The notes under the pieces were generated by a model. It did no database searches and was not told the origin of the DNA. It saw only the letters and a list, made by a program, of their open reading frames with translations. DNA of 64,000 nt from Candidatus Latescibacterota bacterium (lineage in GTDB: Bacteria > Latescibacterota > UBA2968): the NCBI GenBank assembly GCA_965205975.1, contig OZ242195.1, positions 3,136,001-3,200,000 on the forward strand, given 5' to 3'. Numbering within the stretch: the stretch's first letter is position 1; every line of letters begins with the position of its first letter. The position numbers and the translations under genes are program-made. Shown here piece after piece: positions 25,011 through 43,484 of the stretch.

Positions 25011-25069
25011 CAAACCATCATTGCATTTTGACACGACAAAACACCTCGTTTTTATGAGCGAAACAGACA

Positions 25070-25158
25070 AACTTTTACGTAACGTTAAAGTTGGGCGAAA
25101 AAATATACCTCAACACAACATCAATGTCAACGAAAAACTTTGACGTTACGTTAAGGTT
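25070..25158 (-). promoter_or_regulatory. Sigma70 promoter flanked by two 23-bp palindromic operators
   Basis: TTGACA(25130-25125)-17-TATATT; operators aacttttacgtaacgttaaagtt and aactttgacgttacgttaaggtt. Confidence 0.8.
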
Positions 25159-25201
25159 TGGCAATCATCCATCAGCCCGTCCTGCTTCCGCCCCTTAATT
25201 C

Positions 25202-27434: not shown

Positions 27435-28177
27435 AACACGCGGTCATTACAGGCGCGGCGCATGGAATCGGCAAAGCACTTGCCCATCGCTTTGCACAGG
27501 CGGGATATGCCATAACGGGCGTGGATATAGATGCCGCGGGCGCGGCGATAGTCGAGCGGGAATTGGATGCGCGATTTGTCATTGCAGACCTGCGCTCAGA
27601 AGCAGGCATCGCCCGTGCTCTCACCAAACTAACCCAGGAAAAACCGATTGACGTATTGATACACAACGCGGGCATCAACGCCGTCGGACGATTCCCCGAC
27701 ATAAGCATAGAAAATCACGAACGCGTAATCGCCGTGAACTTCTACGCACCTATGCTACTCACAACCGCATTGCTAAAAGCTGACCAGATCACAAAAGGCG
27801 CGTCCATAGCCTTCATCTCTTCCCTTTCCCACTACACGAGCTATCCGGGTGCTGCAACTTATGCCGCGACCAAAAGCGGCCTGGCCTCCTACGCACGCAG
27901 TTTATCCATCGCTCTCGCGCCGCAGAATATTCACGTCACAACAGTTTTTCCCGGCCCAACGCGCACAGCCCATGCGCGGCGTCACAGCCCGCACAACACA
28001 CGCGAAGAAAAACGCATGCCACCCGAAACATTGGCGCACCACATCTTTCGAGGCATAAAAAAGAAAAAACACCTCATCGTACCAGGCGCAGCCAATCGAA
28101 CACTCGCCCTCCTGGGCAAATGGTGCCCGCCCCTGATGGCATATACGATGCGTAAGATGATTTTGGAAAAGTTGTAA
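27431..28177 (+). CDS. SDR oxidoreductase
   Basis: GTG start overlaps the upstream stop; TGAAHGIG, HNAG, YAATK. Confidence 0.9.
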   Translation: MKHAVITGAAHGIGKALAHRFAQAGYAITGVDIDAAGAAIVERELDARFVIADLRSEAGIARALTKLTQEKPIDVLIHNAGINAVGRFPDISIENHERVIAVNFYAPMLLTTALLKADQITKGASIAFISSLSHYTSYPGAATYAATKSGLASYARSLSIALAPQNIHVTTVFPGPTRTAHARRHSPHNTREEKRMPPETLAHHIFRGIKKKKHLIVPGAANRTLALLGKWCPPLMAYTMRKMILEKL

Positions 28178-28185
28178 GATGATTT

Positions 28186-29241
28186 TTATCTCTCCTCAGC
28201 CCAAAACTGCCGCACGTATTCGCCTTTGGGCGTCAGCAGAGTGGTCACATCAATCACATTGGGCACTTGATCCATAATATTCTCACGGACTTGTTTCACG
28301 ATAGCGTATCCTTCTGTTATCGTGATATCCGGATCGGTCTCCGCTGTTAATTCAACATACAGAGCACCCCCCATGGTCCGTATGCGAATATTGTGCGTAA
28401 AGGTGACGCCTTCTACCTTCTCCGCCATCTCTTCAATCAGGGCTATCACCTTTAACGAAGGGGCGTAATCTATCAGCTCTTTAACCGCGGTACTCCCGAC
28501 CTCCCAGGCACTGTGTAAAATCAGGCTCGCGATCACGACAGTGGTAATCTGATCGATCAGCCTGAGGGAAGGAAAATAAGACGAGATGATAATACTCAGC
28601 AGAACAGCCAGCGCACTGGTAGCATCGGCCCGATGATGCCATGCTTTCGCAATCAGCATGGGGCTGTTCAGGCGTATGCCCTTTCTTCGAGTAATGCGAA
28701 AAAGTATTTCCTTGACAGTTATTGAAATGAGGATAATTGCAATGATGAGGATCACATAGCTTAAGCCACCTTCATCGCGGTCTATCGGGTGTTCCTGACC
28801 ATGGTCGTCTTCGTGATCATCGCCGTCTTCTGTCCCATGCGTTTCCGCTTTTTCTTCAAGGACTGTGGACATCCCCTGCTCATGGCCGTGACCGTGACTG
28901 TGATAGCCAAAAGCATCCATGATTAGTTCCACACTCACGAACGCGAGAAGAAAAGCTGCAAAAAGCGACAGAAGAGTTTCGATACGACGGCGACCGTAAT
29001 GGAACCTTAAACCCTCACAGTGTTCCTCAGATCGCGATCCCATCAGCACGGCGAACCAGGCTATAACATCGGATACAATATCCGATAGCGAGTGGACCCC
29101 TGAAGCAATCAGCGGAAGGTAGCCGGTAAAATTGCCAAGACCAATTTTTGCGACACCCAGTATGGCGTTTGAGACCCCACCTGCCGTGATAATGGTTGTC
29201 GCTTCCCTGAGCCTGGTCTTTTCATTGTATTCTGCCTGCAT
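28186..29241 (-). CDS. Cation diffusion facilitator with His/acidic loop
   Basis: HSLSD, HYG..R.E, HHRAD; loop HSHGHGHE..DDHEDDHGQEH. Confidence 0.9.
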   Translation of the reverse strand: MQAEYNEKTRLREATTIITAGGVSNAILGVAKIGLGNFTGYLPLIASGVHSLSDIVSDVIAWFAVLMGSRSEEHCEGLRFHYGRRRIETLLSLFAAFLLAFVSVELIMDAFGYHSHGHGHEQGMSTVLEEKAETHGTEDGDDHEDDHGQEHPIDRDEGGLSYVILIIAIILISITVKEILFRITRRKGIRLNSPMLIAKAWHHRADATSALAVLLSIIISSYFPSLRLIDQITTVVIASLILHSAWEVGSTAVKELIDYAPSLKVIALIEEMAEKVEGVTFTHNIRIRTMGGALYVELTAETDPDITITEGYAIVKQVRENIMDQVPNVIDVTTLLTPKGEYVRQFWAEER

Positions 29242-29259
29242 AACACTTGCACCTCTCAG

Positions 29260-29970
29260 CTATCGTTTTTTCCCCACAAAAAAAGGACCCAGCGATTCGA
29301 CATAAAGTGCAGTTTGCTGGGTTTTTCTCATATCCTGCACAACGCGAGAAAGCGGATAGAGTTCTGCACCGATCAAACCAATGACAAAATCATTATCATC
29401 GGCATCGAGACCATAGCTGGCCAGGCGAACATCGTGCGCATAATCTTCGCGTCCATAAGCACGTCCGATAGAAGCGTGCTCCATCAAAATTTTGCGCTGT
29501 TCCCTGTGGTCCAGGCGGGCAAAAGCTCCATTGCGACGCAGCGGGTACCAGATCGCCCAGGGCCATTCGGGATTGAGCACATTATCGCGCGGTCGGGTGA
29601 CAAGGGCGTATTCGAGATCTGGCTCGTAACCCGTGGCATACGTGCGCCCGAGCATCGTAAGTTCAGGGCGACGTGTAAAGGCAGAGAATGGATCGCTATT
29701 GAGCAGCGCGCGAATATCAGTAACAAACAAATCCGGCGATTCAGCCAAAAAAACAATACCAATACCGCAGGGATCGTGTGCATCGAAATAGAGCGCGGCA
29801 TCGAGACCGCTTGGATCAAGTGCCTCAGATACGGCATCGACATCCTTGACATCCGTAAAAACCTGCAACTGCATGTAAAGCCGTTGATCGCTCGTTTGCG
29901 GCACTCCATCAACAGGCGCGCCGTGTTCGAGGATATCGAGTTTTTCTTTTGATTCAGTAGAATGATGCAC
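29260..29970 (-). CDS. Chlorite dismutase family, probable coproheme decarboxylase
   Basis: WYPLRR, MEHASIGRAY, GLD..DNDFVIG, MR, GPFFVG. Confidence 0.75.
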   Translation of the reverse strand: MHHSTESKEKLDILEHGAPVDGVPQTSDQRLYMQLQVFTDVKDVDAVSEALDPSGLDAALYFDAHDPCGIGIVFLAESPDLFVTDIRALLNSDPFSAFTRRPELTMLGRTYATGYEPDLEYALVTRPRDNVLNPEWPWAIWYPLRRNGAFARLDHREQRKILMEHASIGRAYGREDYAHDVRLASYGLDADDNDFVIGLIGAELYPLSRVVQDMRKTQQTALYVESLGPFFVGKKR

Positions 29971-30110
29971 GTCTTCCTGCCTCCCGTTGTGTGTTTCACT
30001 GTAAAATTCTTTTCATTTTCAACGCGGAAAGATAGGGCTTGACCTCAAAAAGAGCAAGCCCCGGATCAGTCTGCTGAACTGGGGCTTGGTGAAGTATAAT
30101 AACCGCTAAA

Positions 30111-32312
30111 TTAAAAAAAAGACATCTTATAGTGCACTTTAATACTCCGCCCTATTTCGGGCATCACGGATCGAATGCGCGAGAGATGGTTGCGGTATTC
30201 CGTATCCAAAAGATTGTCCAAAGAGAGAATAATACTATGGCGGGTATGATTGGTGTTAATATCGCGTTGGGCATACACACCGAAAACAGCATAGCCATCC
30301 GTAGGATCTTCAAATATATCCACGCGCTCCTGTCCCGCGACAAATTCCGCAGTCCCGCCAACAGTAAAATAGGGATGATGATAGGTCGTACTGCCGACAA
30401 ACTTGAGCGGCGGAATCTCGGGCAGAGGCAAATGCTCATCCCGGTTCTCGCCACGCACATAACTGCCGTTTAATTCCAGATTCAAACGCGTATTTAAACG
30501 CCACCCCAGATGCATCTCCAGACCCAAAAATCGCGCGGCAACACCATCGGCAGCGTAAATCGGCAAAAGTTGGGCAAAATTGATCTCTCCGGTATTGCGC
30601 GGGGCAATATAGGTATCAAACTCGTTCCAATATCCGCTCAAAACAAAATCGACGCCCGGTTGCAAATAATGAAAAAAGACCTCGAAGCCCAGGCTCGTCT
30701 CGGCCTCGAGATCGACATTGCCCACCTCAAAAGTGTAAGCAGCCAGATGCGGCCCATCGTTATAAAGCTCTTCAATCGTGGGCACGCGCTGAGATCGGCT
30801 TAAGTTTAAACCGCCGGTTAGCCGGTCAGTAATAGTCACGAGCGGACTAATCGCCGCTGACCAGGCGTGAAAGGTGCGATCTACATCGAGATCTGCAATG
30901 CTCTTTGTTCTTGGGCGCGGATCAAAGTCGGCATACGTATAACGCGCAGAAGCCTGAAATTCGATGTCGCGATAGGTGCATTCGTGGTAGAGACCTAAGG
31001 AAGCATTTAGCTCTCGCGTGGGCGGTGTAAAAACAAACGCGCCCAATTTGAGGTTATGATGGCCAAAGCCCAGAGCGAGAACGGTATTTCGCATCTGGCC
31101 CTGTGTGTTCATAAGCAATTTGAGATCACCGCGGTAGTCGTGGAACAAAAACTCAGACCCAATATTGCCGCTGGACTCGTACTCAAAGTGGTGATAGAAG
31201 GTCCTGGTAAAATCCATCTCCACACTACTGAACACCTGGCGATCAAAATGAAAGGCCGCCTTGCCATCAAACACGCGGCGATCAATATCCAGATCTACGC
31301 CATTGGGATGTCCGCCAATAAATCCGCCGGGAATGCCGTATTGGGTATCGAACTGATCAAAAGAAGCACCGATATATCCCCGATCAGTGGGATATGACAG
31401 ACCGAGCGTATGCGTGCGCGTATCAATAGGTGTATTGGCAAGTCTGCCAATGGGGGTTTGCACATCCCGGGTATTGCGGTACGTCGTCTCGGCATACAGC
31501 GCGAGCGGACCCACGGGCACTGTGATTCCAGCGGCTGAGAGATACCCTCGATTGACCGTCTCGCCATAAGCACCAACACTGCCAAAAACGCGCTGCGGAT
31601 GGTCTTCGGGTATCTTCTGTTTTACAACATTGATAACCCCGCCAATGGCCGATGCCGTGTGAAGCAACGTGCGCGGACCCCGAATAATTTCGAGACGCTC
31701 GGAATTAAAAGGCTCAAGCGTAACAGCGTGATCGGCAGAAGTAGCGGATAAATCCCGAGTCTCGATACCATCTATATTGATCTGTACGCGGTCACCACTC
31801 AGGCCGCGTATAACCGGGCGAGCGGGTGCAGGCCCCATGCTGCGGATAGCGACGCCGATTTCGTTTTTCATCGTCTCGGCAAGCGTGAGACTATACTTCT
31901 TCTGAAGTTCATCCCCCGAAAGCACGCCAGTCGCTTCGTACAATTCTTCAAAACGGGTTTCGACATTTTTGGCGACCACATCAATGGTATCCAAAAGAAT
32001 TTCCTGAGCGACCATTTCCACGTACAGCATGGAAAGCTTCGCGCTTGAGACCCCGACTTCCCGATGCGCTGTCCCATAGCCGATACGGTAAAAAGACAGG
32101 CGATGAACGCCCTCCGACAGACGCAAGACAAAACGGCCCCGTTCATCGGTTATTGTACCCACTGCGCCATCATCGAGTTTGATATCGACATTGCCCATTG
32201 CGCGTTGGGTCTTGTGATCAAAAACATATCCCTCGAGCAAACGCGTCTCTTGCGATGCGCTGATCGCGAAAAAAAAGAACACAACAATAAAAAAAGAAGC
32301 CGTGAATCTCAA
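30111..32312 (-). CDS. TonB-dependent receptor (ZnuD-like), copy 1
   Basis: N-terminal carboxypeptidase-like domain, RPVIRGL, DHAV plug, EIIRGP, NDGPHLA, C-terminal Phe. Confidence 0.9.
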   Translation of the reverse strand: MRFTASFFIVVFFFFAISASQETRLLEGYVFDHKTQRAMGNVDIKLDDGAVGTITDERGRFVLRLSEGVHRLSFYRIGYGTAHREVGVSSAKLSMLYVEMVAQEILLDTIDVVAKNVETRFEELYEATGVLSGDELQKKYSLTLAETMKNEIGVAIRSMGPAPARPVIRGLSGDRVQINIDGIETRDLSATSADHAVTLEPFNSERLEIIRGPRTLLHTASAIGGVINVVKQKIPEDHPQRVFGSVGAYGETVNRGYLSAAGITVPVGPLALYAETTYRNTRDVQTPIGRLANTPIDTRTHTLGLSYPTDRGYIGASFDQFDTQYGIPGGFIGGHPNGVDLDIDRRVFDGKAAFHFDRQVFSSVEMDFTRTFYHHFEYESSGNIGSEFLFHDYRGDLKLLMNTQGQMRNTVLALGFGHHNLKLGAFVFTPPTRELNASLGLYHECTYRDIEFQASARYTYADFDPRPRTKSIADLDVDRTFHAWSAAISPLVTITDRLTGGLNLSRSQRVPTIEELYNDGPHLAAYTFEVGNVDLEAETSLGFEVFFHYLQPGVDFVLSGYWNEFDTYIAPRNTGEINFAQLLPIYAADGVAARFLGLEMHLGWRLNTRLNLELNGSYVRGENRDEHLPLPEIPPLKFVGSTTYHHPYFTVGGTAEFVAGQERVDIFEDPTDGYAVFGVYAQRDINTNHTRHSIILSLDNLLDTEYRNHLSRIRSVMPEIGRSIKVHYKMSFF

Positions 32313-32377
32313 AACGAATCTCCAACAGAGAAAAAGCCCTCACTCTATCCTGAGAAAACCGAGTGAGGGCAAGGGAA

Positions 32378-32869
32378 CTACTGATCTACGACACGCACGG
32401 GAATGGGAATCGTGCGAAAATCTACATGATCGTCATGGGTGACCTGGAGCTCAATCGTAGTTTCGCCTACCTTGAGGCCGCGCAGTTGGAATTCAAACTT
32501 TCCTACATCTGCAGGCTCCTGATGAACTTCCACAACTGTGTTATCGGCAATCGCCCATGTAAAGCTGTCATCTGGATCATCTGGCGGGTCAATTTCGTCG
32601 CCATCGTGGTCCAGGAACATAATACTCCATTTAGCAGTAAGTCCACCATTGGGAACTTCGAGATGACCTGCCCGACCACCGCTGGCATCGATCGCCCCTT
32701 CAAAATAGCGGAAGAATCGATTGCCCGAATCTATGATAACCAGACCCTCAGGTTCGAAATGCTCTTCGTGTTCAGACATGGGATCATCACTACCACAACC
32801 AATCACAAACAGAGTCAGAACTGCCACAGCGGCAAAAGTGCGTTGAAGCGATTTTCTTCTAAAAAACAT
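32378..32869 (-). CDS. His/acid-rich lipoprotein, copy 1
   Basis: Lipobox VIGC; EHEEH and HDDHVDF. Confidence 0.8.
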   Translation of the reverse strand: MFFRRKSLQRTFAAVAVLTLFVIGCGSDDPMSEHEEHFEPEGLVIIDSGNRFFRYFEGAIDASGGRAGHLEVPNGGLTAKWSIMFLDHDGDEIDPPDDPDDSFTWAIADNTVVEVHQEPADVGKFEFQLRGLKVGETTIELQVTHDDHVDFRTIPIPVRVVDQ

Positions 32870-32993
32870 GATAGTCTCCTGAATGGTAAAACCTGTACAG
32901 GGCACACGGGCTCACAGAGAGAGACCCTCTTATTCAGGCCCGCACAAAAAGGCACAAAAATAAAGCAACCTTCAGTATTAAGATATTCAGTAT

Positions 32994-33272
32994 TCAGGAG
33001 ACTACTGGAGGGGATCGGCCCTGCGGCAAAAGAAAAAACTGGTGGGATAAAAATGTGGCGTTCGACAGAAGATAAAACCAACAGACATATAACGCGCGAA
33101 AAATAACTATGGCACTGATAAGACCACAAAAGCTGTAAACCCAATGGCAAACAAGACAATGGATATCATGCTCTACATGGTCAAATGCATGCCCAAAGGC
33201 AAGGGCAAATGCGCCGATGAACAACACGACGACCAGTGTTTTAACGAATGGATATTTGGTGTGTAGATTCAT
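32994..33272 (-). CDS. DUF2946/CruR-like leader protein (His, CxxC, RSPP), copy 1
   Basis: Hydrophobic N-terminus, HAFDHVEHDIHCLVCH, C-terminal GRSPPVVS; upstream of a TonB-receptor operon. Confidence 0.75.
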   Translation of the reverse strand: MNLHTKYPFVKTLVVVLFIGAFALAFGHAFDHVEHDIHCLVCHWVYSFCGLISAIVIFRALYVCWFYLLSNATFLSHQFFLLPQGRSPPVVS

Positions 33273-33319
33273 CTCAATAGTGTGTCTTTAACAATCAAAC
33301 CCGGCCCTGGTTCCCAATA

Positions 33320-33349
33320 AATATGCAATACATCATATCTTATTGCAAG
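33320..33349 (-). promoter_or_regulatory. Promoter overlapped by an inverted repeat
   Basis: TTGCAA-17-CATATT with TGCAATA-N10-TATTGCA. Confidence 0.55.
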
Positions 33350-33397
33350 TCTTGAGTGATTTGCGGTTTCCAAAGACTCCTGATATTCAATAGATAC

Positions 33398-33799
33398 TTA
33401 CCAGATTGTTGCCACTTGTGATTGCTGAATTTTTTCATCTTTACTGATCAGCGGCAATTCCATATACAGCGCAGTACCCGCAATGATGCGGTCAGGCATA
33501 TCAGGCACTATTGTTCGGGGTATCTCAGCTATTTTGTGAACAATATCCTGGGTTAGATCTACCAAAACCAAATTGCTGTCACCTGTTTTTAGATTATCGT
33601 GAAGCAGTTGCTGATTTTCAAGTGGAATACGACCTTTCTCTTGTAAATAAAGAATTTCAACCAAACAGATCGTGGGTATGTAAATGAAAGCGTCGTCTTG
33701 TTCACAGGCATCAAAAATTTGGCTGGCCTTAGCTCCTAGAAGAACGCTACCCTCCAAATACCAGATCAAACCATGTGTATCAGTGACTGCACGAGTCAT
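33398..33799 (-). CDS. VapC/PIN toxin
   Basis: VTDTHGLIW, ICLVEI, DMPDRIIAGTA, LISKD. Confidence 0.88.
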   Translation of the reverse strand: MTRAVTDTHGLIWYLEGSVLLGAKASQIFDACEQDDAFIYIPTICLVEILYLQEKGRIPLENQQLLHDNLKTGDSNLVLVDLTQDIVHKIAEIPRTIVPDMPDRIIAGTALYMELPLISKDEKIQQSQVATIW

Positions 33800-34035
33800 T
33801 GGGAAACCTCTCGAGGGAAATTGTCCCACATTTCCTTACGGTTTTCACGTATTTCTTTATCCGTGATGTTTAGTCCTTTCCAGATACCTCGTAGAGATCT
33901 GTTTGGGGCCTTCTTTATCCCTTTAAGATCATGTTCTACTTGATCGGTCATACCGCGAATCAATTGAATCTTCTCCTCAACTGACAGCGAACGCGTTGTA
34001 TTCAAAATTTCTGCCACCATGGGATCAGTTGCCAT
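33796..34035 (-). CDS. Cognate antitoxin
   Basis: 79 aa, RSLRGIW...EI...RKEMW.NFPRE; overlaps the toxin start. Confidence 0.75.
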   Translation of the reverse strand: MATDPMVAEILNTTRSLSVEEKIQLIRGMTDQVEHDLKGIKKAPNRSLRGIWKGLNITDKEIRENRKEMWDNFPREVSQ

Positions 34036-34186
34036 TTCAGACCTCCATTTATGTGCTCTGCCACAAAATTTGCTTTCTTTCATTATTTCCAAAATGAAAG
34101 ATATGACTTGACCTCAAAAAGAGCAAGCCCCAGATCAGCAGACTGAACTGGGGCGTAGTGAAGTGTCAGCATATCTGACCGCTAAA

Positions 34187-36388
34187 TTAAAAGAAAAACA
34201 TCTTGTAATGCACTTTAATGCTCCGCCCTGTCTCGGGCATCACGGATCGAATGCGCGAAAGATGGTTGCGGTATTCCGTATCCAAAAGGTTGTCCAAAGA
34301 GAGAATAATACTATGGCGAGTATGATCGGTATTAATATCGCGCTGGGCATAGACACCGAAAACAGCATAGCCATCCGTAGGATCTTCAAATATATCCACG
34401 CGCTCCTGTCCCGCGACAAATTCCGCAGTCCCGCCAACAGTAAAATAGGGATGATGATAGGTCGTACTGCCGACAAACTTGAGCGGCGGAATCTCGGGCA
34501 GGGGCAACTGCTCATCCCGGTTCTCGCCACGCACATAACTGCCGTTTAATTCCAGATTCAAACGCGTATTTAAACGCCACCCCAGATGCATCTCCAGACC
34601 CAAAAATCGCGCGGCAACACCATCGGCAGCGTAAATCGGCAAAAGTTGGGCAAAATTGATCTCTCCGGTATTGCGCGGGGCAATATAGGTATCAAACTCG
34701 TTCCAATATCCGCTCAAAACAAAATCGACGCCCGGTTGCAAATAATGAAAAAAGACCTCGAAGCCCAGGCTCGTTTCGGCCTCGAGATCGACATTGCCCA
34801 CCTCAAAAGTGTAAGCAGCCAGATGCGGCCCATCGTTATAAAGCTCTTCAATAGTAGGCTCCCGCTGGGATCGGCTTAAGTTTAAACCGCCGGTTAGCCG
34901 GTCAGTAATAGTCACAAGCGGACTAATCGCTGCAGACCATGCGTGAAAGGTGCGACCTACACGGAGAGCCGCCAGACTCCTTGTCGTCGGACGCGGATCA
35001 AAGTCGGCATACGTATAACGCGCAGAAGCCTGAAATTCGATATCGCGATAAATAAATTCGTGGTAGAGACCTAATGAAGCGCATTGCTCTCGCGTGGGCG
35101 GTGTAAAAACAAATCCCCCCAATTTGAGGTTATGATGGCCAAAGCCCAGGGACAGAACGGTATTTCGCGTCTGGCCCTGTGTGTTCATAAGCAATTTGAG
35201 ATCACCGCGGTAGTCGTGGAACAAAAACTCGGACCCAATACTGCCACTGGACTCGTACTCGAAGTGGTGATAGAAGGTCCTGGTAAAATCCACCTCTACG
35301 CTACTGAACACCTGGTGATCAAAATGGAAGGCCGCCCTGCCATCAAATATCCGGCGATCAATATCCAGATCTACGCCATTGGGATGTCCGCCAATAAACC
35401 CTCCGGGAATGCCGTATTGGGTATCGAACTGATCAAAAGAAGCACCGATATATCCCCGGTCAGTGGGATACGACAGACCGAGCGTATGTGTGCGCGTATC
35501 AATAGGTGTGTTGACAAGCCTGCCAATGGGGGTTTGCACATCCCGGGTATTGCGGTACGTGGTCTCGGCATACAGCGCAAGCGGACCCACGGGCACTGTA
35601 ATCCCAGCGGCTGAGAGATACCCTCGATTGACCGTCTCGCCATAAGCACCAACACTGCCAGAAACGCGCTGCGGATGGTATTCGGGAATTTTTTCTTTCA
35701 CGACATTGATAACCCCACCAATGGCCGATGCCGTGTGAAGCAGTATGCGCGGTCCCCGAATAATTTCGAGGCGTTCTGAATTAAAAGGCTCAAGCGTAAC
35801 AGCGTGATCGGCAGAAGTAGCGGATAAATCTCGAGTCTCCATACCATCTATATTGATCTGTATGCGGTCGCCACTGAGGCCGCGTATAACTGGTCGAGCA
35901 GGTGCAGGACCCATGCTGCGGATGGCGACACCGATTTCGTTTTTCATCGTCTCGGCAAGCGTGAGACTGTACTTCTTCTGAAGTTCATCTCCCGAAAGCA
36001 CGCCAGTCGCTTCGTACAATTCTTCAAAGCGCGTCTCAGCACTTTGGGCGACCACCTCAATGGTATCCGCAACAATTTCCCGGGCAACCATTTCGATGTA
36101 CAGAATGGGCAATTTCTCATCCGAAACCCTTATTTCCCGACTCACCAATCCATACCCAACACGAAAAAAAGACAGGCGATAAACACCCTCCGACAGACGC
36201 AAGATAAAACGGCCTCGTTCATCGGTTGTCGTGCCCTCTGCGCCATCATCGAGTATGATATCGACATTGTCAATTGTGCGTTGGGTCTTGCGATCAAAAA
36301 CATATCCCTCGAGCAAACGCATTTCACCCGCTGCGTTGATCGCGGAAAAGCAGACCACAAAAACGAGAATGAAGGCTGTAAATCTCAA
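34187..36388 (-). CDS. TonB-dependent receptor (ZnuD-like), copy 2
   Basis: 733 aa paralog of 30111-32312. Confidence 0.9.
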   Translation of the reverse strand: MRFTAFILVFVVCFSAINAAGEMRLLEGYVFDRKTQRTIDNVDIILDDGAEGTTTDERGRFILRLSEGVYRLSFFRVGYGLVSREIRVSDEKLPILYIEMVAREIVADTIEVVAQSAETRFEELYEATGVLSGDELQKKYSLTLAETMKNEIGVAIRSMGPAPARPVIRGLSGDRIQINIDGMETRDLSATSADHAVTLEPFNSERLEIIRGPRILLHTASAIGGVINVVKEKIPEYHPQRVSGSVGAYGETVNRGYLSAAGITVPVGPLALYAETTYRNTRDVQTPIGRLVNTPIDTRTHTLGLSYPTDRGYIGASFDQFDTQYGIPGGFIGGHPNGVDLDIDRRIFDGRAAFHFDHQVFSSVEVDFTRTFYHHFEYESSGSIGSEFLFHDYRGDLKLLMNTQGQTRNTVLSLGFGHHNLKLGGFVFTPPTREQCASLGLYHEFIYRDIEFQASARYTYADFDPRPTTRSLAALRVGRTFHAWSAAISPLVTITDRLTGGLNLSRSQREPTIEELYNDGPHLAAYTFEVGNVDLEAETSLGFEVFFHYLQPGVDFVLSGYWNEFDTYIAPRNTGEINFAQLLPIYAADGVAARFLGLEMHLGWRLNTRLNLELNGSYVRGENRDEQLPLPEIPPLKFVGSTTYHHPYFTVGGTAEFVAGQERVDIFEDPTDGYAVFGVYAQRDINTDHTRHSIILSLDNLLDTEYRNHLSRIRSVMPETGRSIKVHYKMFFF

Positions 36389-36451
36389 AACATACCTCCT
36401 ATAAAAACCCTCACCCGGTCTTTCAAAAACCGGATGAGGGCAAAGCAGTTA

Positions 36452-36940
36452 CTACTCTCCGACATGCACCGGAATGGGCAGCGTGCGAAAATCCACATGA
36501 TCGTCGTGTGTGACCTGGAGTTCAATCGTAGTCTCGCCTACCTTGAGACCCCGCAGGTGAAAATCAAACTTGCCGACATCGTCGGCATCCTGAACAACTT
36601 CCAAAACCGTGGGATCGGCAATCGCCCATGTAAATTTGAAATCCGGATCATCTGGCGGGGCAATCTCGTCGCCATGGTCATCCAGAAAACGGATGCTCCA
36701 GTGCGGCGTTTCCTCATTGAGGGGGGCGTCAAGATGATCTGCCCGACCACCGCTGGCATCAATCTGCCCTTGAAAATAGCGGAAAAAACGATTGCCCGAA
36801 TCTATAATAACCAGACCCTCGGGTTCGAAATGCTCTTCCTGGTGAGACATGGGATCGTCACTACCACAACCGATCACAAAGAAAGCCAGAACTGCCACAG
36901 CGACAAAGGTGCGTTGAAAAGATTTTCTTCTAAAAAACAT
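36452..36940 (-). CDS. His/acid-rich lipoprotein, copy 2
   Basis: Lipobox VIGC; paralog of 32378-32869. Confidence 0.8.
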   Translation of the reverse strand: MFFRRKSFQRTFVAVAVLAFFVIGCGSDDPMSHQEEHFEPEGLVIIDSGNRFFRYFQGQIDASGGRADHLDAPLNEETPHWSIRFLDDHGDEIAPPDDPDFKFTWAIADPTVLEVVQDADDVGKFDFHLRGLKVGETTIELQVTHDDHVDFRTLPIPVHVGE

Positions 36941-37066
36941 GATATAGTCTCCTGAATAAGCCCGCACGGGCAGAGAACACGCAGAGGGGTCCCCTCTTAT
37001 GCCCGCACAAAAAGGCACAAAAATACAGAAAAATAATGCAAACTTTAGTATGGAGATATTCAGTAT

Positions 37067-37363
37067 TCAGAAGACTACTGGAGGGGCTCGGCTCTGAGGT
37101 GAAAGGAAAAACTGGTGGGATAAAAATGTGGGGTGCGGCAGAGTGAAAAAACAACAGGCGTATAATGCACCAAAAACGACTATGGCACTGATAAGACCAC
37201 TAAAGCTATAAACCCAATGGCAAACGAAGCAATGGGTGTCATGTTGACCATGGTCACCATGGTCACCATGGTCAACCGCATGCCCAAAGGCAAGGGCAAA
37301 CGCGCCGACGAGCAATATGACGATCAGCGTTTTAACGAGCGGGTGTCTGGTGTAGAAATTCAT
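37067..37363 (-). CDS. DUF2946/CruR-like leader protein (His, CxxC, RAPP), copy 2
   Basis: HAVDHGDHGDHGQHDTHCFVCH; C-terminal SRAPPVVF. Confidence 0.78.
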   Translation of the reverse strand: MNFYTRHPLVKTLIVILLVGAFALAFGHAVDHGDHGDHGQHDTHCFVCHWVYSFSGLISAIVVFGALYACCFFTLPHPTFLSHQFFLSPQSRAPPVVF

Positions 37364-37416
37364 TCTTAATACTATATGGGGCTACCTCGAGCAAAAATAG
37401 TTGTCTATCAATGCGC

Positions 37417-37869
37417 CTATTTGTCCCCCGCGGAATGCGCTCGCAATTGTCTAATCGATTGCAATCGCAAAAGCAATTTTTCGAGATTTGATTTTAGCTC
37501 TTTCTGGATCTCGACCATTTGCTCGGGAGTCACCTGTAGATTTTCTTTTTCGCCATGGTGTCCATGACCGTGATCATGGGCTTCTTCCGAGTCATCTCCC
37601 GGCACTTCAACCACATTTTTTTCCCACAATTCAAAGTCTTTTTCGATAACCTGAAGACTATCGCGTATTTCCACAGCATGATGTGAAAATGACTTTAGAC
37701 TATCCAGTTGGTTCTCAAATTGCTCTTCAATTTCCATCATCGCCTTGTGAATATCCGCCGCCTGTTGCAAGTGGTGTGCATCTTCTTTATTTTCTCCATG
37801 GCAAGAAACAAAGAACGCAAACACTACAACACTTATCACTTTGAGTCGCATTGGATTTTGTCTCTCCAT
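37417..37869 (-). CDS. His-rich helical lipoprotein
   Basis: Lipobox FVSC; VEVPG..HDHGHGHH. Confidence 0.7.
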   Translation of the reverse strand: MERQNPMRLKVISVVVFAFFVSCHGENKEDAHHLQQAADIHKAMMEIEEQFENQLDSLKSFSHHAVEIRDSLQVIEKDFELWEKNVVEVPGDDSEEAHDHGHGHHGEKENLQVTPEQMVEIQKELKSNLEKLLLRLQSIRQLRAHSAGDK

Positions 37870-37897
37870 ATTTTACGTCTCCTTTCGCGTGTTTATC

Positions 37898-38296
37898 CTA
37901 TTTTTCACAATCATCTTTGCGACATAAATGATGATTCCGAATATGGCCTGAGATCAAAAATCCCGACCCTAAAACGGTCCCCATCCGCTCCCCTATTTCC
38001 CCAAAAAGATCATGGCCAACCATAACCATTACGACGAGAAGGGACAGCCCAAGGATACCGAGACCAATGACAAATTGATCTTTATGACGGCGACACCCCA
38101 ACCCAAGGGCAAGAATGCTGGTGGGCAGAATCAGCCACATCAAAAGCCCATGAAAATGTTCATCGCCAACAAATGTAGTTGCCAATAACGGAAACGCAAT
38201 AAGTGCAACAGGCAATGTCAAACAATGGACCGCACACATTGTTGAAAGAACAATGGCGATTTTGTCACCTGCGGTTTGATAGCTCAAACGCGCCAT
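37898..38296 (-). CDS. MerC-domain membrane protein
   Basis: DKIAI.LS.MCAVHCL.LP, G.RRH, GHIRN. Confidence 0.85.
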   Translation of the reverse strand: MARLSYQTAGDKIAIVLSTMCAVHCLTLPVALIAFPLLATTFVGDEHFHGLLMWLILPTSILALGLGCRRHKDQFVIGLGILGLSLLVVMVMVGHDLFGEIGERMGTVLGSGFLISGHIRNHHLCRKDDCEK

Positions 38297-38331
38297 TTAT
38301 TATCTCCTTTTTATTGATAATAACGACACAC

Positions 38332-38865
38332 TTAATATGTATCACCAGGATTGTTTTTCATATCACGCGTCTCCACCACCTCGGCTTTACTGATGCGAAA
38401 AAAGAGTTCGGAAGGATCTTTTTGCAACAGTTCCAGGCGACCTGTAATGGTAATAGGATCATAAGTAAAATCAATCGGTTTGCTCGGACGAATATCTACC
38501 AGAGACTCAGGCCCACCCCCGCCTACACAAAACGAACATCCCCCAAGTGAATACGGCGTCAAGACAAAACGCGTTTGTTTTTTTTGAGCCGATAGCGGAA
38601 TCATAAATCCGACAAGCTCAACGTACTTGCCATTCATTTTTTTTAATGTATCGGAAAAAATGGGCACAAAGTTCGGCGCATAAGGATCATAACTCACAGT
38701 CGCAAGGGTTTCCCAAAGCGAACCCTTCATCATCTGGGGCAGTGGAGACGCCTGAAGCTCTGGGCGATGGTCTGTTGACGAGGGCGGTGCTTCACTGCCA
38801 GTATCTATTCTCAAAACCACAGCAAATAACAAAATAAACATTACCGTGCGTTGTATATTCATCAC
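38332..38865 (-). CDS. DUF3299 (ZrgD-like) protein
   Basis: NGKYV.L.GFMIPL, F.L.P, CSFC, I.I.GRL. Confidence 0.75.
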   Translation of the reverse strand: MMNIQRTVMFILLFAVVLRIDTGSEAPPSSTDHRPELQASPLPQMMKGSLWETLATVSYDPYAPNFVPIFSDTLKKMNGKYVELVGFMIPLSAQKKQTRFVLTPYSLGGCSFCVGGGGPESLVDIRPSKPIDFTYDPITITGRLELLQKDPSELFFRISKAEVVETRDMKNNPGDTY

Positions 38866-40136
38866 GACACCTCCACCAGTGTTTGTGCAACATCTGTTCG
38901 ATAGACCTGAAGCGCGGGTATAAGAGCCGATACACTACCCAACACAAGCGCCAGACCAATGAGCCAGAATTCATCGGACAAAATAATCCATCCCGTCAAA
39001 TTTATATGCTGTGCCTCGCGCACCCACGCGCCAATCACCTCAGTGCTTGCATGCCCAATCACAAAACCCAACCCCGTACCCATCAATGTAAGCAAGACCC
39101 CCTCCAAAAGCACCTGAACAAAAAGTTTACCGCGACTTGCCCCCAGAGCACGCATCATAGCCAGATCGTATCGCCGATCTTTCATCGCATTATAAAGTGC
39201 CACAAAAATGCTCAACGCCGCTGCAAACACCAGAACCCCACCAAAAACCCGCACCACCTCCAACCCAACACCGAGCAATGCAAAAAGGCGCGTTGTCTCA
39301 AATGCGGGGGACGCAGCCTGAAATTTGGTCTCTTTGTTCACATACCTTGGAAATGACACGGCTGCAATGGGTGAACGATAGCGAATCAACAAACTCGTGA
39401 CTTCGCGCTCGGCATCGGCTTCACTGTCCATCGGCAAACCGAGAACATCGCGTGCGCGATCCTCATCGGCCTGGCTCTCCATGTGGTGATCCTGTTCATC
39501 GCCCTCTTCTTCATGCGGTTCGTGAACCAGCCAGACCGTCTCCACAGAAGTCAATAACAGACGATCGATAATCGAACCCGTTGGTTGCAAAACACCCACC
39601 ACGCGAAACGGTTGCGATTCGTGTTGATCAGAAGCAGTTTCTGCGGTCAAACCGTGCGAGCTAATAATCTCGTCACCCAGCGCAAGACCTGTCACGCCGG
39701 CAACCTGCGCGCCTATGACCACCTGATATGGTACATCCCAAAAGGTACCGTCAACCAATTCCGCCCGGTAGTGTTTGGCGTATGCGGATGTCGTTCCCAC
39801 AATGCGATATCCCCGATAATTATCCCCCAACGCCAGAGGTATCACCTGTGCAACCGCCCTGTTTTTTGCCAGTTCACGCGCCTCTAAAAGCGGTATGTTA
39901 CCCGTTGGCACGTCAACGTGAAAAACACTGGACAAAATCAATTGCAGGGGACTGCCCTTAGCACCCACAACAACATCAATATTTTCAACATTACGGTGCA
40001 AATTCTCTTCAAATTGTTCGCCAAAAAGCAACAAAACAACGACAATACCCGTTCCAAGTCCCAACAATATCATATTGAGCAATGTATTCAACTTGCGCCG
40101 ATAAATATAGGCCAGACTAATTTTGAAGAGATTCAT
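38862..40136 (-). CDS. MacB/FtsX-type ABC permease (ZrgC-like)
   Basis: DVVVGAKGSPLQLILSSVFH, ALGDNYRGYRIVGT, RALGAS. Confidence 0.88.
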   Translation of the reverse strand: MNLFKISLAYIYRRKLNTLLNMILLGLGTGIVVVLLLFGEQFEENLHRNVENIDVVVGAKGSPLQLILSSVFHVDVPTGNIPLLEARELAKNRAVAQVIPLALGDNYRGYRIVGTTSAYAKHYRAELVDGTFWDVPYQVVIGAQVAGVTGLALGDEIISSHGLTAETASDQHESQPFRVVGVLQPTGSIIDRLLLTSVETVWLVHEPHEEEGDEQDHHMESQADEDRARDVLGLPMDSEADAEREVTSLLIRYRSPIAAVSFPRYVNKETKFQAASPAFETTRLFALLGVGLEVVRVFGGVLVFAAALSIFVALYNAMKDRRYDLAMMRALGASRGKLFVQVLLEGVLLTLMGTGLGFVIGHASTEVIGAWVREAQHINLTGWIILSDEFWLIGLALVLGSVSALIPALQVYRTDVAQTLVEVS

Positions 40137-40786
40137 GCGGGCAATTCCACCTGTTCATCAAGCGCAATACAATGGTCAAAACTATCGGTAATACGATGAT
40201 CATGTGAGGCTACCACCAGAGTTGCCTCAACCTCTCGCGCCGATGACGTGAGCAAATCCAACACCTGCTTGCTGCGCGCGTCATCCAATCCAGATGTCGG
40301 TTCATCGGCCAATAATAATTGGGGGCGATTAACAACAGATCGGGCAATTGCCACGCGCTGTTGTTGACCAAAACTCAGTTCCGATGGATAAGCGTGTTCG
40401 CGACCTGCCAGACCGAGAGCCGCAAGCACCTGTTCGGCACGCGCTTTATCCTGCGGAACACCGGCCATATAATGCGCCATAAGCAAATTTTCCAGCACCG
40501 TAAAAACCGGGAACAGGTGAAATTGTTGAAAAACAATGCCAATGCGTTGCCCGCGAAATCGATCGCGAGCGGTCTCTGTCAGTGCATAAATATCCTGTTT
40601 GGCAATATGCACACTGCCCTGTGAGGGCTTTAACAAACCAGCTATAATATGCAAAAGCGTCGTCTTCCCGCTTCCCGATGGCCCGTGCAACAGCCATTTT
40701 TCATCGGGCTGGGCCTCAATATAATCTGGCAAGTCCAATACAAGACGACCACCATAAACATGCCCAACGTGTTTAAGTGCAAACAT
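40133..40786 (-). CDS. ABC ATPase (ZrgB-like)
   Basis: GPSGSGKT, LSFGQQQR, LADEPT, SHD. Confidence 0.92.
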   Translation of the reverse strand: MFALKHVGHVYGGRLVLDLPDYIEAQPDEKWLLHGPSGSGKTTLLHIIAGLLKPSQGSVHIAKQDIYALTETARDRFRGQRIGIVFQQFHLFPVFTVLENLLMAHYMAGVPQDKARAEQVLAALGLAGREHAYPSELSFGQQQRVAIARSVVNRPQLLLADEPTSGLDDARSKQVLDLLTSSAREVEATLVVASHDHRITDSFDHCIALDEQVELPA

Positions 40787-40860
40787 GAAATAGTATCCAA
40801 AAAATGCGATGTGTGACTTCAAAATGTGCCGTCAAAATCGAACGGATGAGGCAATTTCGG

Positions 40861-42099
40861 TCATGCTGACTCTTCGACCATGCGAAGCTCCGGAAACGGG
40901 TTCCGGAACCCTGCCCAGGTCTTGCTGTTAGCGGAGGCGAGGCGCTCGTCGAGCAGACACGCGTCGAGGCGAGCGCGCATCGACGCCTCGTGCATCTGCT
41001 GACCGATGAAGACGAGTTGCTGCGCGCGATCGCCGAAGCGAGGATGCCAGTCCGGATGCTGGTCAGGGCGCTGACCCTCGGGGTGACCCCAGTGTTCGCG
41101 AGGCACGGCCGCCCACCACATCCCAACGGGGTTCACATTGATGACGCCGCCGGCTTGAGACCACTCGTAGAGGACCCGATGGTCAGCGGCGACCCAGAAG
41201 AAGCCCTTCGAGCGGAGCACGCCGCTCCAGTTCTCGGCGTCGTGCAGGAGATCCCACAGTTTCTCGGCGTCGAAAGGCTGCGACGTCCGATAGGTGAAGC
41301 TCGAGATCCCGTACTCCTCGGTCTCAGGCGTGTGCTCACCCTGAAGCTCTCGAATCCAGCCGGCGGAGTGCGCCGCCTTCTCGTAGTCGAACAGGCCCGT
41401 GTCGAGCACGCATTCGAGCGGAACCTGTCCGCGCGTCGCCATGAGGACCTCCGCGCCGGGGTTGAACGCTTTCACGATGGCCTCGACCTCGAGAGCCTGA
41501 TCGTCGCTCACGAGATCGAGCTTGTTCAGCACGATGACGTCGGCGAACTCGATCTGGTCGATGAGCAAGTCGGTCACTGTCCGGTGATCTTCTTCGCCCA
41601 GCGACTCACCGCGGTCCTGGAGCGCCTCGGAGGCGGCGTAGTCCCGCAGGAAACTCGCAGCGTCCACGACTGTGACCATCGTGTCGAGGCGCGAAACCTG
41701 ACCCAGGCTCACACCGTTCTCGTCCTCGAAGGTGAAGGTCTGCGCGACGGGAATGGGCTCCGAGATCCCCGTGGACTCGATGAGCAGGTAGTCGAAGCGT
41801 CCCTCCTGCGCGAGCCGTGAGACCTCGGCGAGCAGGTCGTCTCGCAGCGTGCAGCAGATGCAGCCGTTCGACATCTCGACCAGCTTCTCCTCGGTCCGCG
41901 AGAGTTCCGCACCGCCGCGCTCAACGAGCGTCGCGTCGATGTTGACCTCGCTCATATCGTTGACGATGACCGCGACGCGCATGCCCTCGCGGTTGTTGAG
42001 CACGTTGTTGAGTAGAGTGGTCTTGCCTGCGCCGAGAAAGCCGGACAGGACAGTAACGGGAAGTCTCTCTGATAGGGGCACTTTAGTTTCCTTACTCAT
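40861..42099 (-). CDS. COG0523/CobW-family Zn metallochaperone GTPase (ZigA/YciC-like)
   Basis: [34 protein letters not shown]. Confidence 0.95.
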
Positions 42100-42488
42100 A
42101 CCGCATTGCCACACGCATCACAGGTTCCGAGCAATACCACCTCATGTCCCGTCATCTGAAACCCGTCTGGAACCAGGGAATCGAGGCCCTCGACGCAACC
42201 GAAGAGGTCAAACGCATGGTCGCAGGTCGAACAAAGAAAGTGATGGTGATGCTCGCGGTCCTTGGGCTCGTACCGAACGCCGCGGCCCAACACCTCAACT
42301 GCCTCCAGCGTGCCTTCCTCAACACCCCGTTGGAGCGCGCGATATACCGTGGCGAGACCGATACGCTCTCCCCTTCCGCTCAGGCGACTCCACAATTCCC
42401 TGGCGGATAGGGGGCCGTCCGCTTCGCCAAGGGCTCGCAAGACGGTCAGCTGCTGTTTCGCTCTCTGCTGTTGATTAGCTCTTTGCAT
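42096..42488 (-). CDS. Fur-family regulator, probable Zur
   Basis: [20 protein letters not shown]-terminal CDAC; heads the metal operon. Confidence 0.88.
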
Positions 42489-42494
42489 GAAGAA

Positions 42495-42523
42495 ATGATA
42501 ATCAATTCTCACATTATTGTCAA
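42495..42523 (-). promoter_or_regulatory. Leaderless sigma70 promoter with a Fur/Zur-like box
   Basis: TTGACA-17-TATCAT, then 6 nt to ATG; TGAGAATTGATTATCA palindrome over the -10. Confidence 0.75.
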
Positions 42524-42704
42524 GACTTAACAGATCGGTAAGGGTAGCGTATCTATGCTGTGCGTGTTCGCACGCAGACAGGTCGGAGGTTCCTTTACAA
42601 ATATTTACAGGGAACCCGACCGCCCTTCACGATGTTTAATTTAGACAAAAGCCGTAAACGGTTATATTTTGACGTATCTCGGATAGCAAAAAAGGAGCGA
42701 TCCA

Positions 42705-43484
42705 ATGCACACCAGATGGTTTTTCCTCTTCGCACTGTTCCTTACTGCCTGTATAGGTCCGTTGGATCCGAACAACTCCGAATACATTGAAATACGGGAA
42801 GTAACCGTCGGTCCTGCCCTGGCCAGATGCTATGGCGTGGGTGAACAGACCTGCATGATCGTTGACGGCTCATTATTCTACGACGGCATTGAAGGCTTCA
42901 ACTTCGAAGCGGGCTACAACTATCGCCTGCGGATCGGCATATACGACCCCTATAATGGGGGAGAACCCCCGCAGGATGCCGGCCAGTACAATTATCGCCT
43001 GCTGGAACAAATAGAAAAAGCCCCTGCGCCATCCACCCCTGCAACCATATCTGTGGGACCAACGCGAATAAAATGCGTGCAAAACGACGACTTTTGCCTG
43101 CTGATTAACGGTACGCCATACGACGACATCATCACCAGCTTTGAGTACGAAGCCGGGTATCACTATACCCTCAATGCAAACCAGTACAGCGATGGCCGAT
43201 ACGTATTGACTGAAATAGCCTCAAAAACCGAAGTGACGGGCACAGAAGAAGAAATAACCGTAGGACCCCACAGAACCCCATGCGGCGCCGTGTACTGCAA
43301 CGTCGTCAATGGCGAAGCCTTCCTTAGTGAAATCGTGAACTTCCAGCCCCGGCACAACTACAGCTACCGCCTGCGAGTCGAACGATTCGACCTGTTTACC
43401 AATAACACAACCCCGCCGTCATCCAACATCCCAACCTACGGCTATCGCTGGCTGGAAACCCTCGATCAGAGCGCCAACAATTGA
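42705..43484 (+). CDS. Lipoprotein with three DUF4377-like repeats
   Basis: Lipobox LTAC; three units V.P.R..C....C..V.G..F...I..F....GY.Y.L. Confidence 0.75.
   Translation: MHTRWFFLFALFLTACIGPLDPNNSEYIEIREVTVGPALARCYGVGEQTCMIVDGSLFYDGIEGFNFEAGYNYRLRIGIYDPYNGGEPPQDAGQYNYRLLEQIEKAPAPSTPATISVGPTRIKCVQNDDFCLLINGTPYDDIITSFEYEAGYHYTLNANQYSDGRYVLTEIASKTEVTGTEEEITVGPHRTPCGAVYCNVVNGEAFLSEIVNFQPRHNYSYRLRVERFDLFTNNTTPPSSNIPTYGYRWLETLDQSANN

Follow-up and report, generated by a model that had tools for sequence, protein, structure and literature searches.

The stretch of DNA analysed here, referred to as the window, comprises 64,000 nucleotides from the genome of a Candidatus Latescibacterota bacterium (assembly GCA_965205975.1, contig OZ242195.1) and carries on its reverse strand a unit of leader peptide, lipoprotein and TonB-dependent receptor genes which is tandemly doubled, with copy 2 transcribed first and copy 1 second (Table 1). 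The copy 2 leader sits inside a longer co-oriented cluster, not as its first gene. Between the two units lies a PIN-domain toxin-antitoxin pair (33398-34038, -), and in relatives such a pair, or its remnants, follows the last receptor. A 69-nt repeat with an internal palindrome, REP-like or a terminator, stands directly after each receptor gene (30027-30095 and 34096-34164), and a 25-nt inverted repeat at 25068-25160, the arms of which are 43 nt apart and each palindromic, is a possible operator. A search of positions 28000-43000 against Rfam returned no match at the gathering score.

Table 1. Features of the tandem units and of the cluster upstream of them, in window coordinates
Feature	Positions	Strand	Remarks
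Upstream co-oriented cluster	37417..42523	-	Promoter-like site, Fur-family regulator, ZigA, ABC ATPase and permease, DUF3299, MerC-domain protein, His-rich lipoprotein-like ORF
Leader ORF, copy 2	37067..37363	-	98 aa; ends SRAPPVVF, then stop
Predicted metal site	37220..37282	-	H28, C45 and C48 invariant, H41 and W50 nearly so; flank the variable loop
Three 9-bp units GAC CAT GGT (DHG x3)	37247..37274	-	Near-palindromic unit; run forms a hairpin
C-rich, G-poor stretch	37097..37156	-	21 C, 5 G; largely unpaired in the RNA model; candidate Rho-loading site
RAPP arrest motif	37079..37090	-	Predicted P-site codon Pro94 at 37084-37082
Anti-SD arm UAGUCUUCUGAAUA	37064..37077	-	Last codons and stop; +8 to +21 from the predicted P-site
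SD arm UAUUCAGGAGACUA	36945..36958	-	AGGAG (36953-36949) of the lipoprotein gene
His-containing lipoprotein, unnamed family	36452..36940	-	162 aa; predicted to be gated directly by the helix
Terminator-like hairpin and U tract	36400..36441	-	Between lipoprotein and receptor, ~10 nt after the lipoprotein stop
ZnuD-like TonB-dependent receptor	34187..36388	-	733 aa; best NCBIfam and PDB match ZnuD
Leader ORF, copy 1	32994..33272	-	92 aa; RSPP; short loop; arms 33004-32991 and 32885-32872

The leader peptide and its relatives

In CruR (Bp2923) of Bordetella pertussis, a DUF2946 (PF11162) protein, copper is described as relieving a ribosomal stall, whereupon Rho terminates transcription (PMC9426467, PMC12992588); the peptide has an export signal, a CxxC motif and, near its C terminus, RAPP, and the distance between the two motifs, 45 residues give or take one or two, matters (PMC9426467). 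In CutF of Rhodobacter capsulatus, by its published description, the stall is brought about by copper and a stem-loop that covers the SD opens (PMC9973294; bioRxiv 10.1101/2025.02.05.636593). CruR and CutF are the two models of this kind to have been put to the test. The copy 2 leader consists of an N-terminal hydrophobic helix (hydropathy peak 2.4, residues 9-27), a His loop, CxxC (C45-C48), a second hydrophobic helix and RAPP (R92-A-P-P95), three residues ahead of the stop, within a length that falls under the family's 150 aa. The coordinates and the RAPP ending that an earlier note had given for this copy, from the DNA letters alone, all hold on re-reading. The spacing from CxxC to RxPP is 43 in copy 2 and in every leader of the genus having CxxC, as against 45 in CruR, and across the order both motifs are retained, with a spacing of 42-43 in 48 of the 49 leaders examined. 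With Pfam DUF2946 the copy 2 leader matches at E=1.1e-4 and 23.3 bits, 0.4 bit short of the gathering cut-off of 23.7, and a match at E<=0.05 is found in only three of 18 aligned leaders. Taken together, an export signal or membrane segment, CxxC, a C-terminal RAPP, the spacing and metal-homeostasis genes directly downstream make it likely, as far as sequence features can tell, that this is a CruR/CutF-like (DUF2946-like) arrest leader.

The dN/dS of the leader is 0.28-0.47 against six of the seven relatives tested (0.94 against the closest), and the leader is therefore coding. A structure model places helices at residues 8-31 and 46-74 (mean pLDDT 71), but with a pTM of 0.40 and low confidence in the loop it does not allow the metal ligands to be placed. 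Of 61 genomes searched, 44 have a leader, among them all 20 other genomes of the genus. A profile of 18 leaders retrieved 292 representatives at 50% clustering; among the 150 of these that were listed, 85 end in RAPP and 55 in RSPP, and CxxC stands 41-47 residues before RxPP in 147, a count which is partly circular as the profile holds both motifs. In the 37 nt ahead of the copy 2 leader (37364-37400, -), and in relatives, a well-spaced SD is missing and the ATG is often preceded, at a distance of 6-7 nt, by a -10-like hexamer, an arrangement compatible with leaderless transcripts. The idea of a promoter that serves the leaders separately, or gives leaderless transcripts, was rejected, as a sigma-70 scan gave no site there, with sites overall at chance level.

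Within the genus RAPP is rare: copy 2 alone has it among 30 leaders, the others ending in RSPP, from which one base change produces it. For ApdA the Ser version of the motif, RSPP, is reported as only partly arrest-permissive, and the RAPP motif alone as not sufficient for arrest (PMC12992588). On this analogy, which compares different peptides, the stall of copy 2 may be stronger than that of copy 1. In CruR, ApdA and ApdP the first Pro of the motif is described as being in the P-site at the stall (PMC10951233, PMC12992588).

The helix over the lipoprotein start site and the proposed switch

In copy 2 the two arms given in Table 1 (37077-37064 with 36958-36945) pair at all 14 positions, through 13 Watson-Crick pairs and one U-G (37071:36951). 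The 161-nt region of the helix folds with z=-3.13, none of 200 shuffles being as good, and the RNA model gives the helix a probability of 0.96-0.99; the helix also persists in the full leader context. A stem-loop masking the SD, the type of output known from CutF, is thus found here as a predicted, conserved helix.

Evidence that the helix matters comes from 29 non-redundant leaders that head a lipoprotein gene, 28 of them from the genus and one from a further genome (G032), with two leaders before an ABC ATPase, and the more distant leaders, treated apart. In an eight-pair core 231 of 232 cells are paired, the sole break being one core pair in a single leader (L016), across spacers that range from 91 to 288 nt and are partly unrelated in sequence. 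In the 26 leaders that could be aligned, 91.5% of cells are paired as against 37-45% for slid controls and four pairs have changed on both sides, with a covariation score that was reached by one of 500 shuffles and that kinship inflates. The trinucleotide TTC precedes AGGAG in 28 of the 29 leaders compared with 26 of 665 genes of the genome, and the lone leader lacking it is a compensatory UAA/UUA case. In one contig from an RNA run the whole spacer has been replaced exactly between the arms. With codons, stop and SD lying inside the arms, some of the conservation has other origins, nor are the relatives independent; from the replaced spacers, the compensatory changes and the rare TTC context before the SD it nevertheless follows, on comparative grounds, that the helix is under selection. 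The two leaders that head an ABC ATPase gene without GGAG (L010, L015) are both also without the anti-SD. Among the more distant leaders the duplex of leader end and SD varies in strength, some having a strong one and others one that does not exceed controls.

Several arrangements in relatives may be recorded alongside. In two genomes a leader copy (L035:10448-10720 and L037:10006-10278) heads a run of ABC ATPase, permease and DUF3299 genes, ends in RSPPVV followed by the stop and has no anti-SD, the ATPase start being without GGAG. In other families (L039, L045, L040-L044) leaders occur as a direct tandem pair, spacers extend to 300-700 nt, as many as five lipoprotein genes follow one another and the anti-SD has moved into the Pro-Pro-Val codons. 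In L032 and L034 the spacers of the two copies are 99% identical within a genome and the leaders belong to different clades, which points to gene conversion between copies.

The G-U pair of copy 2 had been put forward earlier as the single substitution within the helix, tolerated while the intervening sequence diverged, and so as support for selection on the structure. The 14-nt pairing with its wobble is indeed present, but the arms of the two copies differ at two of 28 positions, not one, the second being 36958, where U in copy 2 against C in copy 1 adds a pair; there is also a 2-nt insertion between SD and ATG. The spacers have diverged, with 17 substitutions at 95 aligned sites, though modestly, 82% identity (78/95) remaining. 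As proof of selection the wobble fails, both because the difference between arms and spacer is not significant (2/28 against 17/95, Fisher p=0.14) and because a C-to-U change at a C-G pair always gives G-U. The restriction of the wobble column to pyrimidines was likewise rejected as evidence, 18 of 33 fourfold-degenerate leader columns also being without a transversion. A U at one of two G-U-capable positions occurs in 18 of the 29 leaders, making G-U the commonest state, and in the model it weakens the copy 2 lock by 2.9 kcal/mol. The G-U pair of copy 2 is best read as a common allele, ordinary variation among relatives, that would loosen the lock.

The reading that we favour, with moderate confidence in the mechanism as a whole, is that of a metal-sensing arrest leader which turns on the lipoprotein and the ZnuD-like receptor at zinc scarcity. 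The ribosome would stall with Pro94 in the P-site and cover the anti-SD arm, the core of which lies at +12 to +19 from the P-site, a distance that we take to be the leading edge of a stalled ribosome; the SD would then open and the lipoprotein be translated. Zinc on H28, H41, C45 and C48 would fold or pull the nascent chain and relieve the stall, after which termination would allow the helix to re-form. The receptor gene, with a start of its own beyond the terminator-like hairpin, would follow indirectly, by polarity, Rho or read-through. In other words, given this hairpin and a Rho layer, the helix would act on the lipoprotein directly and reach the receptor only by an indirect route. The hairpin and U tract recur in copy 1 (about 32370-32330, -) and in close relatives, and may fix the proportion of lipoprotein to receptor or make transcription of the receptor depend on translation of the lipoprotein.

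With the stalled state modelled by masking a footprint to +15, the median cost of opening the start site in the 29 leaders falls from 13.4 kcal/mol naked to 8.8 masked, ordinary genes standing at 8.7; the drop exceeds 2 kcal/mol in 21 leaders and is 2 kcal/mol or less in eight. For copy 1 the model gives 14-17 kcal/mol naked against 8.5 stalled. For copy 2 the corresponding values are 9.6-11.3 and 9.1 with 6-250 nt upstream of the P-site included (15.0 naked with no upstream nucleotides), a small range, as both the freed arm and the Pro codons pair elsewhere. Copy 2 is thus predicted to be the leakier lock, among the weakest of the leaders. Public RNA runs hold related sequence at a share of 0.12-0.18, in the form of contigs only, which are silent on level, strand and transcript ends.

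It is possible to place the main output elsewhere, in Rho-dependent termination at the C-rich stretch, with the anti-SD helix secondary and serving to keep the lipoprotein mRNA untranslated. All 30 related leaders have, immediately ahead of RxPP, a stretch with C in excess of G (that of copy 2 ranks in about the top 1-2% of coding windows and is largely unpaired in the model), which has its like in cruR; the genome has a rho gene, and such an output would account for control of the receptor despite its own start. We hold this to be distinctly improbable as the main output: the C-rich codons may reflect a peptide rich in Pro, His, Phe and Ser, and Rho control alone has no need of a conserved SD helix with compensatory changes.

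A plainer account dispenses with a metal-regulated stall altogether, in favour of translational coupling by the terminating ribosome or of a SecM-like secretion monitor. The position of the stop codon within the anti-SD arm is consistent with it, as is the downstream copy of one genome (G009), which keeps signal helix, RSPP and RNA helix and has lost the whole His/CxxC part, and as is the only partly arrest-permissive nature of RSPP reported for ApdA/ApdP. The proposed stall of copy 2 would resemble those of SecM, ApdA and ApdP, where RAP/P stalls at the peptidyl-transferase centre, and SecM opens a stem over the SD of secA (PMC10951233, PMC12992588). These peptides are, unlike copy 2, described as monitors of protein export that head sec genes (PMC10951233, PMC12992588), whereas here metal uptake and not Sec functions lie downstream, and every other leader examined retains CxxC, H28 and the spacing, which makes this account very improbable. 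The earlier reading of the element as an arrest leader combined with an anti-SD switch is well supported by motifs, geometry and relatives.

Downstream genes and the metal probably sensed

A DNA-pattern search was made with the lipoprotein, the alignment of 18 leaders having offered no conserved stretch, and gave 16 loci, 15 of them titled Latescibacterota/Latescibacteria. The lipoprotein has no Pfam match in copy 2 and a weak one to Big_2 in copy 1, and Atlas clusters named 'lipoprotein family' are matched at 0.96. In four further places in relatives (L062, L064-L066) its core domain occurs in frame behind other sequence, without leader or receptor.

The metal is better indicated by the receptor, whose NCBIfam match to ZnuD (E=4.5e-67) far exceeds that to the copper receptor OprC (9.8e-18), although its score against NF038289, the ZnuD family and its best match, is 227 bits against a cut-off of 950. 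The best PDB match is also a ZnuD (4rdr). With a 14-residue offset applied between the chain and the paper, D194, H195 and H522 align with three of the four zinc ligands of ZnuD (Asp99, His100, Glu340, His499), Glu340 falling outside the aligned stretches. Upstream, ZigA scores 625.6 bits, over its cut-off of 600, and DUF3299 is the zrgE of a Zur-repressed zrg operon described in Vibrio (PMC9817125). A zinc-type context also occurs in another genus (L063). DUF2946 genes themselves appear in Zur data from Caulobacter (PMC4176598). We infer from this setting that zinc is the metal sensed.

It is unlikely, in our estimation, that the same arrest switch instead senses copper, as CruR does, or another metal such as Co, Ni or Cd. 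The layout from CxxC to RAPP is that of CruR, which is copper-specific with a moderate Zn effect only and in which CxxC is a copper ligand; His-only CutF-like proteins stand before Ni/Co genes; and OprC is a weak match of the receptor. Against copper there stand the much closer relation of the receptor to ZnuD, with three of four ligands kept, its neighbours ZigA and DUF3299, and the finding of no copper chaperone or oxidase among the 18 proteins scanned.

The direction of the response may also be questioned, as in CutF-like polarity the metal would induce the stall and the genes would be on in metal excess, for example for buffering or sequestering. The SD-masking helix is the design of CutF, and a CDF efflux gene lies downstream. 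The cargo, however, is an uptake-type receptor in a starvation-type cluster, and the motifs are RxPP and CxxC, as in CruR, not PPP and CxxxC, so that such polarity is very unlikely, and relief of the stall by zinc is the reading retained here.

Assignment of the Fur-family gene to Zur was not obtained in a family search, and no Zur box was found before either leader in a scan that used consensus motifs. The only Fur-type site found lies over the promoter-like element at 42523-42495. Here (42523-42492, -) a strong sigma-70-like promoter (11/12), the -10 of which overlaps the Fur-type palindrome, precedes the Fur-family gene (likely start 42488), an arrangement that is a candidate for autoregulation of the whole cluster.

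The histidine tract, the allele series and known systems

In the alignment of 18 leaders H28, C45, C48, R92, P94 and P95 are invariant, and H41 and W50 nearly so; on this pattern H28, H41, C45 and C48 would be the residues that bind metal. The His tract falls between H28 and H41, and the distance from CxxC to RxPP stays at 43. As had been noted earlier, a 9-bp unit is present three times, CCATGGTCA starting at 37248, 37257 and 37266, read in frame as GAC CAT GGT x3 (37273-37247), that is, DHGDHGDHG, and makes the loop six residues longer than that of copy 1. Only seven perfect repeats of this kind (9x3) occur in the whole genome. An assembly slip is unlikely, since contigs of two public runs, which may be the source sample, match the three-unit repeat without difference. 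The repeat forms a hairpin of -12 to -13.5 kcal/mol as DNA (z=-2.78 as RNA), and its near-palindromic, hairpin-forming unit would favour slippage.

Repeat number does vary among relatives, as the earlier note had asked to be checked, related contigs carrying one, two or three units. In 29 leaders with a loop, 20 are short, one has +2 residues, four +3, two +6 and two +7; the pure DHG repeat is private to this genome, and in the closest +6 relative the units include the variants EHG and DHD. A downstream copy in another genome (G009; L038:6573-6728) has lost the His loop and CxxC by in-frame deletion and is thus a sensor-less allele. Six or more His before CxxC occur in four of 147 leaders, among the 150 of 292 representatives that were listed, and copy 2, with six, is at the high end. 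The suggestion that the tract retunes metal affinity or selectivity finds no support, as the tract is a length-variable linker between conserved residues, and the receptors of both copies share, at 90% identity, their ZnuD-type ligand residues, which makes a different metal unlikely. To judge by the leaders compared, the DHG repeat is probably a slippage expansion in a tolerant linker, with metal selectivity unchanged.

In all seven genomes with two units it is the upstream copy whose loop is longer; these copies belong to a single clade, and the longer loop may therefore be one inherited event. A more elaborate reading, which we consider rather unlikely, makes the tandem units zinc-sensing arrest switches with different thresholds, a graded, protein-free sensor with the repeat tract as tuning knob. 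The upstream copy, with its longer His loop, stronger RAPP stall and looser G-U lock, would on this doubtful footing open at mild zinc shortage, and the tighter RSPP copy, no less speculatively, only in deep starvation.

Set beside the known systems, copy 2 shares with CruR its peptide layout (CxxC, RAPP and spacing) and an import cargo. It departs from CruR in that the cargo is ZnuD-like with a lipoprotein first, in the His-rich loop before CxxC, in its length (98 aa against 145) and in having a 14-bp SD-masking helix where the output of CruR is Rho termination. With CutF it has in common a secreted DUF2946-like leader the stall of which would open a stem that covers the SD of the following gene, whereas CutF has CxxxC, PPP and a detoxifying multicopper oxidase in place of CxxC, RAPP and uptake-type genes, and the helix of copy 2, unlike that of CutF, is long-range and includes the stop codon. 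In other words, copy 2 combines the peptide layout and import cargo of CruR with the RNA output of CutF. Its closest counterparts are uORFs ending in RAPP that the supplement of PMC12992588 places before zinc-regulated receptors (nine of its 26 'zinc' rows): they too are of about 95-130 aa, with a signal-like start, His, mostly CxxC, a C-terminal RAPP and a zinc-type receptor downstream. One of them is annotated DUF2946; the leaders are given as a list only, the main text being without the word 'zinc', and they differ from the present case, where a lipoprotein gene separates leader and receptor and the unit is present as a tandem pair.

A paper testing zinc sensing by such a peptide was not found in the literature covered, which was mostly open access with supplements in part; PMC12914433, in its accessible portion, adds copper cases only, and no zinc riboswitch is known according to PMC9426467. 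Copper is the one metal for which the literature found shows sensing through nascent peptides of this class. The copy 2 element is, on its sequence, a zinc-linked variant of the known copper arrest-leader system, and the locus with its relatives amounts to a natural allele series, with RAPP and RSPP, loops of +0, +2, +3, +6 and +7, G-C and G-U locks and one sensor-less leader, within which the features singled out earlier, the G-U pair and the repeat, are mostly ordinary variation. If it is zinc-responsive, the arrest leader would be a post-transcriptional zinc sensor.
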